Source: Kiritimatiellia bacterium (GTDB lineage Bacteria; Verrucomicrobiota; Kiritimatiellia; RFP12; UBA1067). From it: DNA of 64,000 nucleotides. The notes below the pieces were generated by a model. It worked only from the letters and a program-made list of their open reading frames with translations, searched no databases and was not told where the DNA came from. The stretch lies in contig JBMNFY010000015.1 of assembly GCA_050949565.1 (NCBI GenBank), positions 1 to 64,000 of the forward strand, in the 5' to 3' direction. This document shows positions 16,564-50,220 of the stretch, in pieces. The stretch's first letter is position 1. Each line of letters opens with the position of its first letter. Position numbers and translations under genes: made by a program.

Positions 16564-17326
16564 TTTTAACGCAGAGACGCAGAGACGCAGAGGTTGTGGG
16601 TTGTGGGGTTTTAACGCAGAGACGCAGAGACGCAGAGGTTGTGGGTTGTGGGGTTTTAACGCAGAGACGCAGAGACGCAGAGGTTGTGGGTTGTGGGGTT
16701 TTAACGCAGAGACGCAGAGACGCAGAGGTTGTGGGTTGTGGGGTTTTAACGCAGAGACGCAGAGACGCAGAGGTTGTGGGTTGTGGGGTTTTAACGCAGA
16801 GACGCAGAGACGCAGAGGTTGTGGGTTGTGGGGTTTTAACGCAGAGACGCAGAGGTTGTGGGTTGTGGGGTTTTAACGCAGAGACGCAGAGACGCAGAGG
16901 TTGTGGGTTGTGGGGTTTTAACGCAGAGACGCAGAGACGCAGAGGTTGTGGGTTGTGGGGTTTTAACGCAGAGACGCAGAGGTTGTGGGTTGTGGGGTTT
17001 TAACGCAGAGACGCAGAGACGCAGAGGTTGTGGGTTGTGGGGTTTTAACGCAGAGACGCAGAGACGCAGAGGTTGTGGGTTGTGGGGTTTTAACGCAGAG
17101 ACGCAGAGACGCAGAGGTTGTGGGTTGTGGGGTTTTAACGCAGAGACGCAGAGACGCAGAGGTTGTGGGTTGTGGGGTTTTAACGCAGAGACCGCAGAGG
17201 TTGTGGGTTGTGGGGTTTTAACGCAGAGACGCAGAGACGCAGAGGTTGTGGGTTGTGGGGTTTTAACGCAGAGACGCAGAGACGCAGAGGTTGTGGGTTG
17301 TGGGGTTTTAACGCAGAGGCGCAGAG
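16564..17326 (+). repeat. Tandem array of a 45-bp unit, 17 units plus a partial 18th
   Basis: Unit ttttaacgcagagacgcagagacgcagaggttgtgggttgtgggg. Units at 16834 and 16961 lack one gcagagac (37 bp) and the unit at 17178 is a 38-bp variant. Confidence 0.97.
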
Positions 17327-17342
17327 GGAGGCAAAGGGGGTT

Positions 17343-17723
17343 TCAAAGTCTGTTTACAACACGATGGATACCCTCTTTAATTGTCGTTGCACCGAAATTG
17401 ACCACAAGTCCCAACTTGAGGCTTTTTAAGCGGAGATACGTCAGCACCTGGATGTCGAAAATCGTGTTGTAGAGCTCAACAGCCTTACACTCAACAACCA
17501 CTTTTTCCTCAACCAGCAAATCCAGTCTCAGGGGTGTCCCTAAACGATGCCCTTTGTACACAAGAGGGACGGGCACCTGTCGTTCTACTGAAACGCCCCT
17601 ATCCTGCAACTCAAATGCTAGAGCTTCTTCATACACGGACTCAAGCAACCCCGGCCCACCCAATTCCTTGTGGACAGCAATCGCAGCATCAAGAATGATC
17701 GCGCTGATCTCATTCTCTACCAT
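17343..17723 (-). CDS. GxxExxY protein (PD-(D/E)XK nuclease-like, PDDEXK_3 type)
   Basis: VHKELGGPGLLESVYE.AL..EL, RLDLLVE.KVVVECKAV, QVLTYL, GLVVNFG. Lower GC than its neighbours. Confidence 0.95.
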   Translation of the reverse strand: MVENEISAIILDAAIAVHKELGGPGLLESVYEEALAFELQDRGVSVERQVPVPLVYKGHRLGTPLRLDLLVEEKVVVECKAVELYNTIFDIQVLTYLRLKSLKLGLVVNFGATTIKEGIHRVVNRL

Positions 17724-17765
17724 TCCATCTCTCCGCAATTAGTATCCCTACGCTAAAAACATCCA

Positions 17766-18072
17766 CGTAGCAACCCCTCTGCGTCTCTGCGCCTCTGCGT
17801 TATTATTTCCCCGTAGCAATGCCTCTGCATCTCTGCGTTACTTATCTCTCCGTAGCAATGCCCCCCAAAAAAACTCTGCGCCTCTGCGCCTCTGCGTTAT
17901 TATCTCCCCGTAACAATGCCTCTGCGTCTCTGCGTTATTATTTCCCCGTAGCAATGCCTCTGCATCTCTGCGTTACTTATCTCTCCGTAGCAATGCCCCC
18001 CAAAAAAACTCTGCGCCTCTGCGCCTCTGCGTTATTATCTCCCCGTAACAATGCCTCTGCGTCTCTGCGTTA
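17766..18072 (-). repeat. Higher-order repeat: 135-bp unit x ~2.2, built from (ctctgcg)n-tta...ccgtagcaatg subunits
   Basis: The block starting ~17795 repeats 135 bp later. Each subunit is the reverse complement of the taacgcagag motif. Confidence 0.9.
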
Positions 18073-19579: not shown

Positions 19580-19865
19580 GAAGTTAATTAGTGCTTGGTT
19601 TTTTTATCCACAGATGGACACAAGATTACGCGGATTTTTGGGGACAGGGCTCGGGTTTATTTAACGCAGAGGCACGGAGACACAGAGGTTTTTTGGGGAG
19701 TGGCAGGGCTGGCCGCAAGTTATTGCGACCACCCAGTGGTCGCAATGATGAGTGTAAAAACGGGCGGAGGTTGGGCACTGGGCGCACACAGGGCATGCAA
19801 TGAGAGCCGTGACATACCAGATCGTCACGCCACACTCCCAAACTAATGAACTAATGAACTAATGA
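19580..19865. repeat. Intergenic repeat mosaic
   Basis: tatccacagat module, linker gggacagggctcgggttt, taacgcagaggcacggagacacagag, palindrome attgcgaccacccagtggtcgcaat (19722-19746), (ctaatgaa)x3. Confidence 0.8.
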
Positions 19866-20685: not shown

Positions 20686-20721
20686 GAGTACATTAGCGCC
20701 CTATCGACCGATAAAAAAAGT

Positions 20722-21200
20722 TGTTTTCACCACGAGGGCACGAAGGACACGAAGGTTTTTGAGGTAGCTCTGCTCGGGTCTGTTTAGCCACAGAGGCACG
20801 GAGGCACAGAGTTTTTCTGGGGGCAGGGCTCCGGGTTTGTTTAACCACGAAACACACTGAATACACGGAAAGGCATGGCTCGGGTCTTCGGAACCGCCAA
20901 GACGCCAAAAACGTCAGGGCAAGCTCCAGTTTTCATGAGGTTTCATGTGTTTCATGGTTCGGTTTTGTTTAACGCAGACGCAGAGGTTTTGGAGGGCGAG
21001 TGTCCCCACGAGCCGCCTTCCGCTATACGGAAGGATGGCCTCAAGTTCCTTCGCAGAGCACTGGGAGGGACGAGCGTCGCTCGTCCGCGGGCAAGCAGAC
21101 GCTTGCCCCTCCCTGCGCTTCGCAAACCGCGCCACTTGATGTTGAAAGTTGAGCGTTCGATCCCGATAGCACACTAATTAACTAATGCACTAATGAACTT
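20722..21200. repeat. Array of six different short-period motifs with linkers, followed by REP-like palindromes
   Basis: Motifs listed in the findings. REP-like ggagggcgagtgtccccacgagccg and ggagggacgagcgtcgctcgtcc..gggcaagcagacgcttgccc at 20991-21112. Confidence 0.8.
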
Positions 21201-25297: not shown

Positions 25298-26920
25298 ATG
25301 CACCTTTATCTCTACGGCCCTCCCGGCAGCGGCAAATCCACCATCGGCCAAATCCTTGCGCAGCGCTTGGACCTGCCCTTCATCGACCTCGATGCCTTCA
25401 TTGAACGCGCGGCCAAACAGTGCATCCCCGACATTTTCGCCCTCGAAGGCGAGGCGGGGTTCCGGGCTCGTGAAGCTGCCGCGTTCGACCAAGCCGCACA
25501 CGGATCGGCAGCAGTCATTGCCCTCGGCGGTGGTGCCCTGCTCAACGCCAAGAATCGTGCTCTGGCCGAATCCACCGGTGACATCCTCTGCCTCCAGGCA
25601 GACGCCGCCACGCTGGAATCGCGCGTGAACCGCAACCCCGGCCAACGCCCCCTACTCGCTGTGCCGAACATGGAGTGCGCCACGCCCCCCTCCCCCGGCC
25701 AAGCCAAACCCATCGGCCAACTCCTAGCCGAGCGCGCCGACCACTACGCCTCGTTCGCATGCCGCTTGTCGGTCAGCGACCTGCCGCCCGATGTGACGGC
25801 GGATCAGGCGCAAGCCGTACTCGGACGCTTCCGCATCAGCGGTATGGGAAACGCCTATTCCGTCCGCGTCGGCGATGGTGTACTGGACACGCTTGGCGCG
25901 CGCATGGCTGAATTGGGCTGCGGCAACCGCACGGTCGTGGTGGGCGATTCGCACACCCTGCCGCTCTACGGCGAGCGTGTAGCGGCTTCGTTGCGCGCAA
26001 GCGGCATGACGGTCAGTCTCGCCGAGATCCCGGCCGGTGAAGCGACCAAGACCATCGAGACCGTCGCCGCGCTTTGGTCGGCCTTCCTCGACGCCGGTAT
26101 CGAACGCGGCCATGCGGTGGTCGCGCTGGGCGGCGGTGTAGTCGGCGACCTCACCGGTTTCGCGGCTGCCACGTGGTTGCGCGGGGTGCGCTGGATCGGC
26201 CTGCCGACCACACTGCTCGCAATGGTCGATTCCGGACTCGGCGGCAAGACCGGTGCCGATCTGCCGCAAGGCAAGAACCTGATCGGCGCGTTTCATCCGC
26301 CGTCTCTGGTGCTGGCCGACACGTCAACGTTAGCAACCTTGCCCGCGGTCGAGTTGCGGTGCGGCTTGGCGGAGGTCATCAAACACGCGGTGATCGGCGA
26401 TCCGGGGCTGCTGGACGAGTTGCCACGCTTCGCCTTCTGTGCGCAGAGCGCCGACAACGCCCCATGCACATGCCTAGCGGAAAGCGACTGGTTAGCGTCC
26501 TTCGTCGCGCGTGCAATGGCCGTCAAGGTTCGCATCATCCAGCAGGATCCGTTTGAGAAGGGCGCGCGCGCCGCACTCAACCTCGGCCACACGATCGGAC
26601 ACGGTATTGAGAAGGCGACGGATTTCGCCGTGCGTCACGGCGAGGCGGTCGCCATCGGCACCGTACTGGAAGCGCAGCTTGCAGAAGCACTCGGACTGGC
26701 GCAACCAGGTCTGGCGCAACAGCTCGCCGCGCACTTCGCGCAGGTGGGGCTGCCGGTGACAATGCCCGCCGGTATCGACCTGACAGCCGTGCGGGCGGCA
26801 ATGGCGCTCGATAAAAAAAGGGCGGACGGCGAAATACGATTCGCGTTGCCCGCCGCGATCGGCGATGTGCGCACCGGAATCGCGGTCGACGACGCTCTTC
26901 TCGGTAATGTTCTGAGGTAG
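25298..26920 (+). CDS. aroKB: Bifunctional shikimate kinase / 3-dehydroquinate synthase
   Basis: N-terminal GPPGSGKS, D.D, GEAGFR, LGGG. C-terminal GE..KT, LGGGVVGDL.GF.A, PTTLLAMVDS..GGKT, NLGHT.GH, HGEAV, DKK. Confidence 0.95.
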   Translation: MHLYLYGPPGSGKSTIGQILAQRLDLPFIDLDAFIERAAKQCIPDIFALEGEAGFRAREAAAFDQAAHGSAAVIALGGGALLNAKNRALAESTGDILCLQADAATLESRVNRNPGQRPLLAVPNMECATPPSPGQAKPIGQLLAERADHYASFACRLSVSDLPPDVTADQAQAVLGRFRISGMGNAYSVRVGDGVLDTLGARMAELGCGNRTVVVGDSHTLPLYGERVAASLRASGMTVSLAEIPAGEATKTIETVAALWSAFLDAGIERGHAVVALGGGVVGDLTGFAAATWLRGVRWIGLPTTLLAMVDSGLGGKTGADLPQGKNLIGAFHPPSLVLADTSTLATLPAVELRCGLAEVIKHAVIGDPGLLDELPRFAFCAQSADNAPCTCLAESDWLASFVARAMAVKVRIIQQDPFEKGARAALNLGHTIGHGIEKATDFAVRHGEAVAIGTVLEAQLAEALGLAQPGLAQQLAAHFAQVGLPVTMPAGIDLTAVRAAMALDKKRADGEIRFALPAAIGDVRTGIAVDDALLGNVLR

Positions 26921-29234
26921 TTTTTTAACGCAGAGGCGCAGAGACGCAGAGGTTTTTTGGGGGCATGGTTCGGGTTTTTTATCCACAGATTTTTTGTTTT
27001 GCCCGCAGGATGGGAGGGACGAGCGTCTGCTCGTCCGCGGGCAAGCAGACGCTTGCCCCTCCCGGTGCTGCGCGAGACGAATCATAGGCTGGAGGGCGAG
27101 CGTCCCTGCGAGCCGCCTTCCGCGTTGCGCGCGGAGGGAAAGTGGTGCCGCGACCCGCGCACAGCGCGGCCCTTGTCACCGCACTCCAGATCCCGGGCGA
27201 AAAATTTGGAGTGCGGCGGCAAGCGGTATCCCGCGCGACGCCGCTTTTTCGGCGTTCGACGTTCAGCGTTGGGCGTTCGGCGTTCACAAAACGGCGGCGT
27301 GGAACGCCGCCCGGACGGGCAGACGCTTGTCCCTCACGGCTCTCCGCGAGCCCGTACACCGCGCAGGTGGGGCTGCCGGTGACAATGCCCGCCGGTATCG
27401 ACCTGACAGCCGTGCGGGCGGCAATGGCGCTCGATAAAAAAAGGGCGGACGGCGAAATACGATTCGCGTTGCCCGCCGCGATCGGCGATGTGCGCACCGG
27501 AATCGCGGTCGACGACGCTCTTCTCGGTAATGTTCTGAGGTAGTTTTTTAACGCAGAGGCGCAGAGACGCAGAGGTTTTTTGGGGGCATGGTTCGGGTTT
27601 TTTATCCACAGATTTTTTGTTTTGCCCGCAGGATGGGAGGGACGAGCGTCTGCTCGTCCGCGGGCAAGCAGACGCTTGCCCCTCCCGGTGCTGCGCGAGA
27701 CGAATCATAGGCTGGAGGGCGAGCGTCCCTGCGAGCCGCCTTCCGCGTTGCGCGCGGAGGGAAAGTGGTGCCGCGACCCGCGCACAGCGCGGCCCTTGTC
27801 ACCGCACTCCAGATCCCGGGCGAAACATTTGGAGTGCGGCGGCAAGCGGTATCCCGCGCGACGCCGCTTTTTCGGCGTTCGACGTTCAGCGTTGGGCGTT
27901 CGGCGTTCACAAAACGGCGGCGTGGAACGCCGCCCGGACGGGCAGACGCTTGTCCCTCACGGCTCTCCGCGAGCCCGTACACCGCGCAGGTGGGGCTGCC
28001 GGTGACAATGCCCGCCGGTATCGACCTGACAGCCGTGCGGGCGGCAATGGCGCTCGATAAAAAAAGGGCGGACGGCGAAATACGATTCGCGTTGCCCGCC
28101 GCGATCGGCGATGTGCGCACCGGAATCGCGGTCGACGACGCTCTTCTCGGTAATGTTCTGAGGTAGTTTTTTAACGCAGAGGCGCAGAGACGCAGAGGTT
28201 TTTTGGGGGCATGGTTCGGGTTTTTTATCCACAGATTTTTTGTTTTGCCCGCAGGATGGGAGGGACGAGCGTCTGCTCGTCCGCGGGCAAGCAGACGCTT
28301 GCCCCTCCCGGTGCTGCGCGAGACGAATCATAGGCTGGAGGGCGAGCGTCCCTGCGAGCCGCCTTCCGCGTTGCGCGCGGAGGGAAAGTGGTGCCGCGAC
28401 CCGCGCACAGCGCGGCCCTTGTCACCGCACTCCAGATCCCGGGCGAAACATTTGGAGTGCGGCGGCAAGCGGTATCCCGCGCGACGCCGCTTTTTCGGCG
28501 TTCGACGTTCAGCGTTGGGCGTTCGGCGTTCACAAAACGGCGGCGTGGAACGCCGCCCGGACGGGCAGACGCTTGTCCCTCACGGCTCTCCGCGAGCCCG
28601 TACACCGCGCAGGTGGGGCTGCCGGTGACAATGCCCGCCGGTATCGACCTGACAGCCGTGCGGGCGGCAATGGCGCTCGATAAAAAAAGGGCGGACGGCG
28701 AAATACGATTCGCGTTGCCCGCCGCGATCGGCGATGTGCGCACCGGAATCGCGGTCGACGACGCTCTTCTCGGTAATGTTCTGAGGTAGTTTTTTAACGC
28801 AGAGGCGCAGAGACGCAGAGGTTTTTTGGGGGCATGGTTCGGGTTTTTTATCCACAGATTTTTTGTTTTGCCCGCAGGATGGGAGGGACGAGCGTCTGCT
28901 CGTCCGCGGGCAAGCAGACGCTTGCCCCTCCCGGTGCTGCGCGAGACGAATCATAGGCTGGAGAGCGAGCGTCCCTGCGAGCCGCCTTCCGCGTTGCGCG
29001 CGGAGGGAAAGTGGTGCCGCGACCCGCGCACAGCGCGGCCCTTGTCACCGCACTCCAGATCCCGGGCGAAAAATTTGGAGTGCGGCGGCAAGCGGTATCC
29101 CGCGCGACGCCGCTTTTTCGGCGTTCGACGTTCAGCGTTGGGCGTTCGGCGTTCACAAAACGGCGGCGTGGAACGCCGCCCGGACGGGCAGACGCTTGTC
29201 CCTCACGGCTCTCCGCGAGCCCGTACACCGCGCA
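26737..29234. repeat. Four tandem copies of a 623-bp unit (aroB 3' end plus repeat-rich downstream DNA)
   Basis: Units start at 26737, 27360, 27983 and 28606. The junction hexamer cgcgca recurs at 29229-29234. Confidence 0.97.
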
Positions 29235-39627: not shown

Positions 39628-40440
39628 CGCGGGCAAAGCCCGCGGATAGGCTGTAAGACTGTGAGGTTGTGAGGCTGTAGGTTGGTTTTTCCATCCGCGC
39701 CGTGCGCGGATACACTTCGTCTCCACACTTAATCGCCACACTTAATCGAATACACTTCGTCCCTACACTTAATCGATTGCGCCAGCGACGAAGCGTAAGC
39801 GACGTGTCTTGGACTGAGTGAACGACGTAGACGACGCAGAGGCACGGAGATTTTTACGGGGTGGCGGCGTGACCGCCGCCGGGGAGGGACGAGCGTCTGC
39901 TCGTCCGCAGGCAAGCAGACGCTTGCCCCTCCCGGCGCTCCGCGAGCCCAGACAGCAGCACTGGAGGGCGAGTGTCCCCACGAGCCGCCGTCCGCGCACA
40001 GCGCGGAGGAAACGCTCAAGCGCCGCCGGGCAAGCAGACGCTTGCCCCTCCCGGCGCTCCGCAATGAAACCTGAAACCATCCTTCCGCACAGCGGAAGGG
40101 CGGCTCGTGGGGACACTCGCCCTCCAAATCGTGTCGTTTATGCGCCCGCGCAGCGGGAAATCATGTCAAAAAATGAAACCATGGAACACGGGCAAGATGC
40201 CCGTGCCATACCCTTTTACAAGACACGTTGTTGCGGGCGAGGACGCCCGCACTCCCGACTCTCTGCTCCCCTTGTCATCAGAAACGCATGACCTTCGCAC
40301 ACCCTGTCGCTAATGCGGGCGGAGCCCGCAACCCAAGTTAACTAGTGCGTTAGTTAATTAGTGCATGAATTTGTCCGGGAGCGCGCTGCCCCCAAAAAAC
40401 CTCTGCGTCTCTGCGCCGCTACGTTAAACAAACAACTTGT
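39628..40440. repeat. ~800-bp intergenic repeat mosaic between convergent genes
   Basis: Hairpin cgcgggcaaagcccgcg, (ggctgtra)n, (acacttaatcg/acacttcgtc)n, multiple REP-like palindromes, ttaattagtgc module, ctctgcgtctctgcg. Confidence 0.85.
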
Positions 40441-50099: not shown

Positions 50100-50220
50100 C
50101 CACCATTGCATGTCCTGTGCGCTCCCGACGCTCGCCCTCCCGCCCGTTTTTACACTCATCATTGCGACCAGCCCTGCCTCCTAAAAAAACTCTGCGTCTC
50201 TGCGTCTCTGCGTTAAAAAT
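50100..50220. repeat. Repeat module related to 19660-19800 (reverse orientation)
   Basis: cgcccgtttttacactcatcattgcgacca.ccctgcc followed by ctctgcgtctctgcgtctctgcgttaaaa. Confidence 0.85.

Follow-up and report, generated by a model that had tools for sequence, protein, structure and literature searches.

The 64 kb stretch of DNA analysed here (the window) carries a gene of the GxxExxY family between two inward-facing arrays of one short motif, and we interpret this feature as one copy of a compact mobile gene cassette with an end-recognizing putative nuclease, a reading that we hold to be probable with reservations. The window belongs to a genome assembly of 4.66 Mb in 21 contigs (60% GC, 92% complete, one contig of 1.97 Mb), and the closest named relatives are Kiritimatiellia metagenome-assembled genomes (MAGs). 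Biogas or landfill communities harbour the organism. The core of the cassette would span ∼0.45–0.5 kb and consist of one arm (AAC and then three CGCAGAG words with 8 bp spacing), the gene for a 131-residue nuclease and the same arm inverted. The protein would read the words as an array of binding sites at both ends, as transposases do at multi-site terminal repeats, and would nick or cut at the arms, moving or copying the cassette. Dispersed solo arms and miniatures would spread through its action in trans on gene-less copies, and breaks at the arms could seed local tandem amplifications. The parts of this reading are not equally firm. A discrete unit that is mobile both horizontally and within the genome is well supported by sequence comparison, recognition of the words by the GxxExxY protein is strongly inferred, and the protein is a reasonable candidate for the putative catalyst of movement.

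The locus had been singled out by a reading of the letters alone (the sequence-only reading), which saw an intact GxxExxY gene of lower GC in a polysaccharide operon, with 17 or more copies of a motif to its left on the plus strand, about seven inverted copies to its right on the minus strand and scattered solo copies elsewhere. Each of these observations was reproduced (Table 1), and every solo copy is present, the single-arm copies being located by a pattern search allowing up to three mismatches and a two-word copy lying at about 20968–20986. The gene has a GC content of 0.485 compared with 0.605–0.616 in the adjoining genes, which encode a Wzy_C-like membrane protein and an NDP-sugar dehydrogenase; rmlD and a flippase gene are also nearby, and all flanking genes lie on the minus strand. 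Tandem Repeats Finder (TRF) returned the same 45 bp consensus for the left array as the sequence-only reading, TTTTAACGCAGAGACGCAGAGACGCAGAGGTTGTGGGTTGTGGGG, which is built from TTTT-AAC, two or three GCAGAG words at 8 bp spacing and GTTGTGGGTTGTGGGG. Units of 37 bp with two words are scattered among the 45 bp units, and the array contains 15 exact three-word matches on the plus strand. It is the arm 3′ of the GxxExxY gene in amplified form and ends 25 bp from the ATG of the dehydrogenase gene. The right array contains five exact 17-mers on the minus strand and two ATGCAGAG variants; the TAA of its outermost copy (18070–18072) starts a TAACGCAGAG copy and also terminates the reading frame of the Wzy-like gene. 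Read in the direction of the genes, the order is Wzy gene, about seven forward arms, GxxExxY gene, 17.5 reverse arms, 25 bp and dehydrogenase gene. The three-word pattern (up to three mismatches) occurs 25 times in the window and not once in 100 shuffles.

The host genome contains six GxxExxY loci, one of them frameshifted. All six are framed by an arm of AAC and three words at 8–10 bp spacing and, opposite it, by an inverted copy of that arm; five different words are used: CGCAGAG in the window, CATGAAA at two loci and a CACGGAA-like word, CACGAAT and CGCAAAG at one locus each. Five of the genes have GC contents of 0.445–0.485 in this 0.60-GC genome. The upstream flank of each of 3032 roughly called genes was compared with the reverse complement of its downstream flank (median score 8.5, 99th percentile 23.3). 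Of the six GxxExxY genes, five ranked 74th or better, the sixth having an arm within its called open reading frame (ORF), and seven of nine four-helix-bundle genes (TIGR02436) ranked 85th or better; the other top-ranked genes were multi-copy genes of 419, 425 and 449 residues that resemble those of insertion sequences (ISs) and a few ordinary genes between heptamer tracts. The two CATGAAA cassettes, separated by 10 kb and located at different gene junctions, are 91% identical over 460 bp, with the homology running exactly from AACCATGAAA to TTTCATGGTT. All four of their 29 bp arms are identical, compared with 40 differences in the body, including a frameshift. This comparison supports the view that a GxxExxY gene and its inverted arms form one discrete unit from arm to arm.

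The junction between the Wzy and dehydrogenase genes was compared at ten loci with dehydrogenase orthologues from related genomes, a type of comparison between empty and filled sites that the sequence-only reading had also proposed; the site proved to be filled in the genus and empty in two other genera. A GxxExxY cassette with CGCAGAG-type words is present at four loci (three genomes of the window's genus). Its arm copy numbers are unlike those of the window, a difference that calls for caution, as tandem arrays have probably collapsed in these relatives, which are short-read MAGs. Two junctions, in genera with Wzy identities of 60–70%, are empty, with the genes 8 and 10 bp apart and neither arm present; the C-terminus of the Wzy-like protein is longer in the window than in the orthologues at empty sites. 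In one further genus the junction holds ∼96 bp with a single module of another word, and in another (G020, L004:1319–1930) it holds an insert of ∼0.6 kb encoding a four-helix bundle (TIGR02436, 122.3 bits) between inverted GGTTTCA-type words. The remaining two loci comprise one without synteny and one at a contig edge. Judged by sequence, this one operon junction is filled independently by both cassette classes. As part of the cassette reading, and with the same reserve, we suggest that the cassette probably entered the junction in an ancestor of the genus, in operon orientation, and that its arms have been amplified since.

Relatives of the window protein were sought in one genome per species, giving 48 loci, 40 of which had enough flanking sequence to be analysed. 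Inverted flanks exceed the 90th percentile of the own genome at 38 of these loci and the 99th percentile at 22. The own-genome distribution of 3032 genes was used as the null in place of a cross-locus flank permutation, which was dropped because the loci share words (95th percentile of this control 26, with just 17 of the 40 loci above it). CGCAGAG or CGCAAAG follows AAC at loci with 60–98% protein identity in Anaerolineales, Sorangium, Thermoanaerobaculia, a Flavobacteriaceae MAG and others, the phyla including Chloroflexota, Myxococcota and Acidobacteriota. Bacteroidales proteins (54–59% identity) are accompanied by CACAGAT or CACAGAA, and Planctomycetota proteins (44–48%) by CGCCAAG. Of the 74 loci for the CATGAAA paralog, 62 lie above the 90th percentile, and with falling identity the word drifts from CATGAAA (76–100% identity) through CACGAAA (58–66%) and CACTGAT (55–60%) to CGCTAAT or CACTAAT (45–52%); in this series, a change of word affects every copy in both arms together. 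The words share the frame C-R-C-N-R-A-N.

Co-variation of the words at GxxExxY loci with the protein across many genomes, for which the sequence-only reading had proposed a test, is supported by this drift and by a Mantel test on 100 loci, in which protein identity and arm similarity correlate with a Spearman coefficient of 0.453, a value reached in none of 300 permutations. Because kin share both traits by descent, this result establishes co-inheritance and not yet recognition. In 43 cassette pairs at 70–97% protein identity, which are not independent of each other, the arms (26 nt each) are 85.9% identical compared with 75.3% for the DNA of the gene, and the arms are ahead in 37 pairs. These comparisons show that the arms are more strongly constrained than the coding sequence and that gene and arms have travelled together from phylum to phylum. 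Conservation of the arms beyond that of coding DNA, combined with concerted change of the words, is the pattern that binding sites for a co-evolving factor would show, and the encoded protein is the simplest candidate for the factor that reads them.

The window protein scores 134.6 bits against TIGR04256 (GxxExxY; cutoff 35) and 130.6 bits against PF13366 (PDDEXK_3; cutoff 22), and a Pfam/NCBIfam search of the ORF returned solely these two families and no transposase domain. Residues G30-x-x-E33-x-x-Y36, D73 and E83-x-K85 supply both the GxxExxY and the PD-(D/E)XK signatures; in an alignment of 39 sequences, every member has D73 and K85, and conservation of E33, Y36 and E83 is at least 90%. 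An AlphaFold2 (AF2) model of the protein (pLDDT 94.5, pTM 0.88) matched only PD-(D/E)XK nucleases in a structural search against representatives. The best match is the nuclease domain of BpuSI (Z = 8.0, r.m.s.d. of 2.5 for 92 aligned residues), followed by 3ijm (Z = 7.9), an HsdR fragment (Z = 7.2), Cas4 (Z = 7.2) and Hjc (Z = 6.3), none of which stands out. Foldseek gave no match at E ≤ 0.001 (best, Cas4 SSO0001 at 1.2e-3), and a sequence search of solved structures gave none at E ≤ 1. From the model and the retained residues, the protein is most likely to be an active minimal nuclease, the substrate of which cannot be read from the fold. In its entries for the family, a census of PD-(D/E)XK proteins lists PF13366 as 'Unknown' and with 'multiple transfers' (PMC3424549). 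One alignment column near the C-terminus varies with the base at word position 4, with W accompanying T (30), G accompanying A (25) and I or Y accompanying G; as the sample consists of two query-centred clades, this is a lead and not evidence.

The exact 17-mer AACGCAGAGRCGCAGAG was counted in 41 genomes of the order, which are 56–100% complete and mostly fragmented. It occurs 187 times in the host genome (G000), 46 times in G004, 17 times in G002, eight times in G003, five times in G005 and four times each in G001, G011 and G014; seven other genomes have 1–3 sites each and 26 have none. The cognate gene (at least 88% identity) is present in G000, G004, G001, G003 and G007, all of which carry the motif. 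The motif count follows the cognate gene only loosely and supports the link weakly; because short-read MAGs lose repeats, the counts are weak in either direction. In five complete Sorangium genomes with cognate CGCAAAG cassettes, the 17 nt arm start occurs 121, 115, 21, 42 and 12 times, and the same string read backwards does not occur in any of the five. Among the first 100 sites listed for one of these genomes, 56 form 28 inward-facing pairs 52–158 bp apart. Eight pairs were read and consist of an arm, a loop of ∼10–40 nt (∼10–12 nt in five) and the inverted arm; in six, the forward arm has the four-word build of the cassette of that genome. These miniatures are the gene-less two-armed derivatives that would be expected if the protein acts on arms in trans. 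The Sorangium miniatures L154, L156 and L157 (G041) are nested in a larger, shared repeat with inverted ends of its own (…CAGAAGTTCGGCCAGGGATCC… and …GAACTCTGGCAGGAGTTCTG…).

Gene-less arms are also abundant in the host genome. With up to three substitutions allowed, the CGCAGAG arm occurs at 216 sites in 132 loci, and just 17 of these sites are near the cassette. The other families with a cassette are CATGAAA (154 sites, 65 loci), CACGGAA (∼130 sites, 61 loci), CACGAAT (seven sites, five loci) and CGCAAAG (12 sites, 11 loci). No cassette was found in this assembly for CACAGAT (94 sites, 74 loci), CACAGAG (56 sites, 25 loci), CGCCAAG (31 sites, 26 loci) or CGCGAAG (29 sites, 28 loci). At 27–30 of the CACGGAA sites the arms form hairpin doublets, unlike the CGCAGAG solos. 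Solos of differing word families share a host-specific skeleton, GCTCGGGTTTRTTT-AAC-words-GTTTTTTGGGG, and lie in chains with modules that carry other words; inspection by eye of the skeleton ahead of solos revealed no apparent intrinsic-terminator hairpin. Periodic three-unit sites number 1509 genome-wide, 1155 of them outside called genes, and CGCAGAG is one of many families with 7–10 bp periodicity.

This abundance raises the question of whether the arms belong to the host, with generic periodic modules filling the intergenic DNA and small foreign genes landing among them. We consider this improbable. The periodic sites outside genes, the spacers that are chains of different-word modules on one skeleton, the several ordinary genes that also lie between inverted heptamer tracts and the abundant families without a cassette are all in keeping with such an origin. 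It conflicts with the occurrence of the same word beside related proteins in unrelated phyla, for example CGCAAAG in Sorangium (GC content ∼72%), and with the five words of one genome, each of which matches foreign relatives. The homology between paralogous cassettes also takes in the arms and ends at their outer edge, and neither arm is present at the two empty orthologous junctions.

The solos are biased in position: of 118 classified contexts, 79 have an upstream gene that shares the strand of the motif, with its stop codon a median of 55–62 bp ahead of the motif, and in five of the 118 the TAA of the motif is itself the stop codon of the upstream gene. This bias would suit a domesticated host factor that binds or processes dispersed words near gene ends (in control of transcript ends, chromosome structure or recombination), the arms of its own gene being autoregulatory operators, as would the intactness of the gene and its retention at this site in three further genomes of the genus. 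We give this explanation little credence in view of the patchy distribution and cross-phylum transfer pattern, the low GC, the frameshifted paralog, the junction that is empty in sister genera and the retained catalytic residues. The 'multiple transfers' given in the census entry for PF13366 (PMC3424549) also argue against it.

Nine four-helix-bundle genes (TIGR02436, Avd/S23p-like) are present in the host genome (L016–L024, e.g. L018:801–1230, L020 and L021) and are framed by inverted arrays of 7 bp words, including GGTTTCA, GGTTCAA, TTAGGAG, GCCACTA, ATTAGTT and GAACGCA. Heptamer tracts of this type account for most of the 1509 periodic sites and presumably resemble the heptamers of cyanobacterial short tandemly repeated repetitive (STRR) sequences. 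The type of repeat tracks the protein family, with 7 bp words around four-helix-bundle genes and AAC with words at 8–10 bp spacing around GxxExxY genes, which speaks against a merely passive role of the cargo.

The window cassette also resembles the ORF-bearing intervening sequences (IVSs) of 23S rRNA in Coxiella and Leptospira. According to the passages on IVSs in PMC4990558, the Coxiella element measures 428–444 nt, has a 28 bp terminal stem and an internal small ORF and is excised by RNase III. The shared features are a length of ∼0.43–0.46 kb, terminal inverted repeats of 28–29 bp, one small ORF, horizontal acquisition and insertion inside a transcription unit, as far as IVSs are described in those passages (PMC4990558). 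The ORF family of IVSs, a four-helix bundle (TIGR02436/PF05635), has analogous cassettes here, one of them at the same junction in G020. In contrast to IVSs, the cassette lies between protein-coding genes, its ORF, framed by inverted arms of 25–29 bp, encodes a nuclease and not S23p, its arms are word arrays with no RNA-pairing signature and gene-less copies are dispersed. That the cassette is an IVS-like RNA element, cotranscribed and processed by RNase III at a ∼25–30 bp stem formed by the arms, with the protein taking no part in movement, is in our view unlikely. The agreement in size and arm length with the Coxiella IVS (in the same passages of PMC4990558), the co-orientation of the cassette with both flanking genes and the S23p/Avd-like cassette at the same junction in another genus speak for it. 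The unique part of the cassette, a 534 nt piece over the gene (482 nt in one run), was recovered with no differences and stopping at the arms in public-run contigs from two metatranscriptome and two DNA runs; its presence in the metatranscriptome contigs is in line with an RNA element and is no proof of transcription. Against this, 90 cassettes gave no RNA-helix signature: arm-versus-arm transitions kept G·U in 120 cases compared with 121 A·C (p = 1), a result that does not exclude processing of a transcript. Moreover, the arm sequence itself is conserved between cassettes beyond complementarity, a stem has no need of a periodic three-word build, the more than 130 single-arm solo loci cannot form stems and the repeat type follows the protein family. 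A joint in one DNA run that skips the gene (17292>17777, depth 2, shorter side 24 letters) was rejected as too weak a candidate for an empty or miniature form.

Several findings weigh against the mobile-cassette reading. The cassette stays at one site across the genus, so that recent movement of the window copy is not demonstrated, and the two CATGAAA copies, the only two insertion sites compared, have neither a target-site duplication nor a flanking direct repeat. No opposite-strand partner lies within 150 bp of any of the 216 CGCAGAG sites; the solos are therefore single arms, which two-ended cut-and-paste would not mobilize. The view of the sequence-only reading that they are non-autonomous copies has to take account of their lack of partners and of the position of CGCAGAG as one family among many. 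Four word families are common without a cassette in a 92%-complete assembly, two cassette-bearing families (CACGAAT and CGCAAAG) have few solos, and the skeleton shared by solos of different words hints at a possible host-level process. The motif is present in all five genomes with the cognate, but ten genomes without it carry some AACGCAGAGRCGCAGAG copies: G002 has its 17 sites with no cognate found (56% complete) and G011 has four sites without any GxxExxY gene, while G007 has the gene (88% identity) yet a single site. Finally, the same layout around an unrelated four-helix fold means that layout alone does not mark the nuclease as a mobility enzyme.

Tandem amplification accompanies many of these arms. 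A genome-wide TRF search gave 84 arrays with a period of at least 30 bp and at least 2.5 copies; the CGCAGAG word is present in ten of the 16 top-scoring arrays and another periodic word in most of the others, and four of the six cassettes have an array beside them. Arm modules and amplification are therefore genuinely linked, and slippage, unequal exchange and repair of cuts are candidate causes. It is very improbable that the long arrays (17.5 × 45 bp and others) are assembly artefacts and that the real locus has one arm per side. Short-read relatives do show 2–3 units on the same side, and public contigs break at the arms, so that the copy number is unconfirmed. The imperfection of the window array is, however, structured (37 bp units among 45 bp units, 93% matches, 6% indels), the assembly has 21 contigs including one of 1.97 Mb, short-read MAGs are expected to collapse arrays, which would explain the low counts in relatives, and the bracketing is independent of copy number. 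Elsewhere in the window, a 623 bp unit is repeated 4.0 times at 26737–29234, with units 2–4 each one base different from unit 1; in each unit, a CGCAGAG module is combined with ∼400 bp of spacer and the 3′-terminal ∼184 bp of the gene that ends at 26920. The array is either a very recent amplification or an assembly effect. In contig C17 of the host genome, hairpin units of 114 bp with the word CACGGAA are repeated 19.9 times directly downstream of a GxxExxY gene (C17:1380456–1382762), and 143 bp CACAGAG units are repeated 21.1 times at 100% identity with no cassette nearby (C17:778495–781514).

Among known systems, the comparison put forward by the sequence-only reading was with repetitive extragenic palindromic (REP) and REPIN elements and their RAYT (TnpA-REP) genes, reportedly described by Nunvar in 2010 and by Bertels and Rainey in 2011. 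The likenesses are a small single-domain nuclease gene between inverted copies of a short, extragenic repeat dispersed in tens to hundreds of copies through the genome, gene-less two-armed doublets (CGCAAAG in Sorangium, 27–30 pairs of CACGGAA here) and a clade-specific repeat sequence. In contrast, the cassette protein has a PD-(D/E)XK fold and RAYT is an HUH Y1 transposase of the IS200/IS605 TnpA type; the cassette arm is non-palindromic (AAC with 3–4 direct 7 nt words at 8–10 bp spacing) and REP is an imperfect palindrome; the main family here is scattered in the form of single arms, in chains with other families; and cassettes are found across phyla, several to a genome. Our comparisons support a RAYT/REP-like picture with a PD-(D/E)XK fold, which would fit the discrete unit, the filled and empty sites, the cross-phylum co-variation of words and the gene-less copies; the unpaired CGCAGAG solos and the similarly framed four-helix-bundle genes do not fit it in a simple way.

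Tn7, Mu and inverted repeat/direct repeat (IR/DR) elements have ends with several transposase-binding sites. The cassette is like these and like miniature inverted-repeat transposable elements (MITEs) in its inverted ends of several direct word copies and its short gene-less two-ended derivatives; it differs in having no DDE or serine/tyrosine recombinase, in the much tighter word spacing of 8–10 bp, in a length of less than 0.5 kb and, compared with classical ISs and MITEs, in the missing target-site duplication at the CATGAAA copies. With IS200/IS605 it shares a minimal element, a catalytic protein of ∼130–150 residues, no target duplication, no classical terminal-inverted-repeat transposase and abundant derivatives. 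IS200/IS605 elements, however, rely on an HUH enzyme that acts on single-stranded DNA at sub-terminal hairpins, and their left and right ends differ, whereas the ends of the cassette are the same word array inverted.

A search of the literature (main text, not supplements) gave no description of the cassette class, and none of six arm strings was found. Among the matches listed, there was nothing on flanking repeats for GxxExxY and the PF13366, PF05635 and TIGR families and no link of heptamers to four-helix-bundle genes for STRR sequences and heptanucleotides; for repeat-associated small ORFs resembling restriction endonucleases, none was relevant by title. The cassette class is widespread and apparently undescribed. 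We put forward tentatively, as somewhat short of an even chance, a wider reading in which GxxExxY proteins would be the end-recognizing nucleases of a pan-bacterial class of ∼0.45 kb cassettes with C-R-C-N-R-A-N word ends, their word specificity being re-set by co-evolution of protein and arm. Four-helix-bundle cassettes, the classical ORF-bearing rRNA IVSs among them, would form a sister class, and gene-less arms would explain much of the short-period intergenic repeat DNA of Verrucomicrobiota, Myxococcota, Bacteroidota and others. If the mobile-cassette reading holds, PF13366/TIGR04256, a large family, gains a function, and it becomes clear where the periodic intergenic repeats that abound in several phyla, and perhaps ORF-bearing rRNA IVSs as well, come from. 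The proteins would be small ones whose DNA-word specificity shows in their own flanks, making the rules of recognition directly testable. For annotation, such cassettes would explain inserts at operon junctions and gene 3′ ends, and breaks in short-read assemblies there, in such genomes.

Table 1 Features of the cassette locus, its neighbours and solo arms in the window
Feature	Position	Strand	Details
NDP-sugar dehydrogenase gene, 428 residues	15253–16539	−	TIGR03026, 431 bits; host gene downstream of insert
Left tandem array	16564–17326	+	17.5 units × 45 bp, 93% matches, 6% indels (TRF)
Innermost 3′-side arm copy, AACGCAGAGGCGCAGAGGG	17309–17327	+	16 bp from GxxExxY stop codon
GxxExxY gene, 131 residues, intact, without internal stops	17343–17738	−	PD-(D/E)XK fold
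Right arm array, ∼7 copies (AAC + 2–3 × GCAGAG), 5′ side of gene	17774–18072	−	135 bp unit × 2.1 (TRF)
Wzy_C/O-antigen-ligase-like membrane protein gene, 502 residues	18070–19578	−	PF04932, 54.2 bits; host gene upstream of insert
Solo single arm (three mismatches)	1997–2021	−	Pattern search
Solo single arm, degenerate words GCAGAG/CACGGAG/CACAGAG	19663–19687	+	Separate hairpin repeat directly after
Two-word solo copy, last of six word modules in rmlD/ahcY spacer	20968–20986	+	Each module has a different word
Four solo copies (starts 26927, 27550, 28173, 28796), one per 623 bp unit	26927–28820	+	Inside ×4 amplification
Solo single arm (two mismatches)	40401–40425	−	Pattern search
Solo single arm (exact)	50190–50214	−	Pattern search

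The rmlD/ahcY spacer (20686–21199) holds six three-word modules, namely CACGAAG, CACAGAG, CACGAAA/CACGGAA, CGCCAAG, an inverted CATGAAA and CGCAGAG, joined by a common, host-specific linker (...TTTTTGGGGGCAxxGCTCGGGTTTGTTT-AAC...). A hairpin repeat, ATTGCGACCACnnnGTGGTCGCAAT then GATGAGTGTAAAA, often directly follows a solo arm, as at 19700–19760 of the window; it has 144 strand-counted matches in the genome and, being palindromic, ∼70 sites. In recurrent hetero-doublets, for example in the contexts of C18:19654 and C5:13414, a CACGGAA arm in forward orientation faces a CATGAAA arm in inverted orientation; the two words differ by transitions alone.

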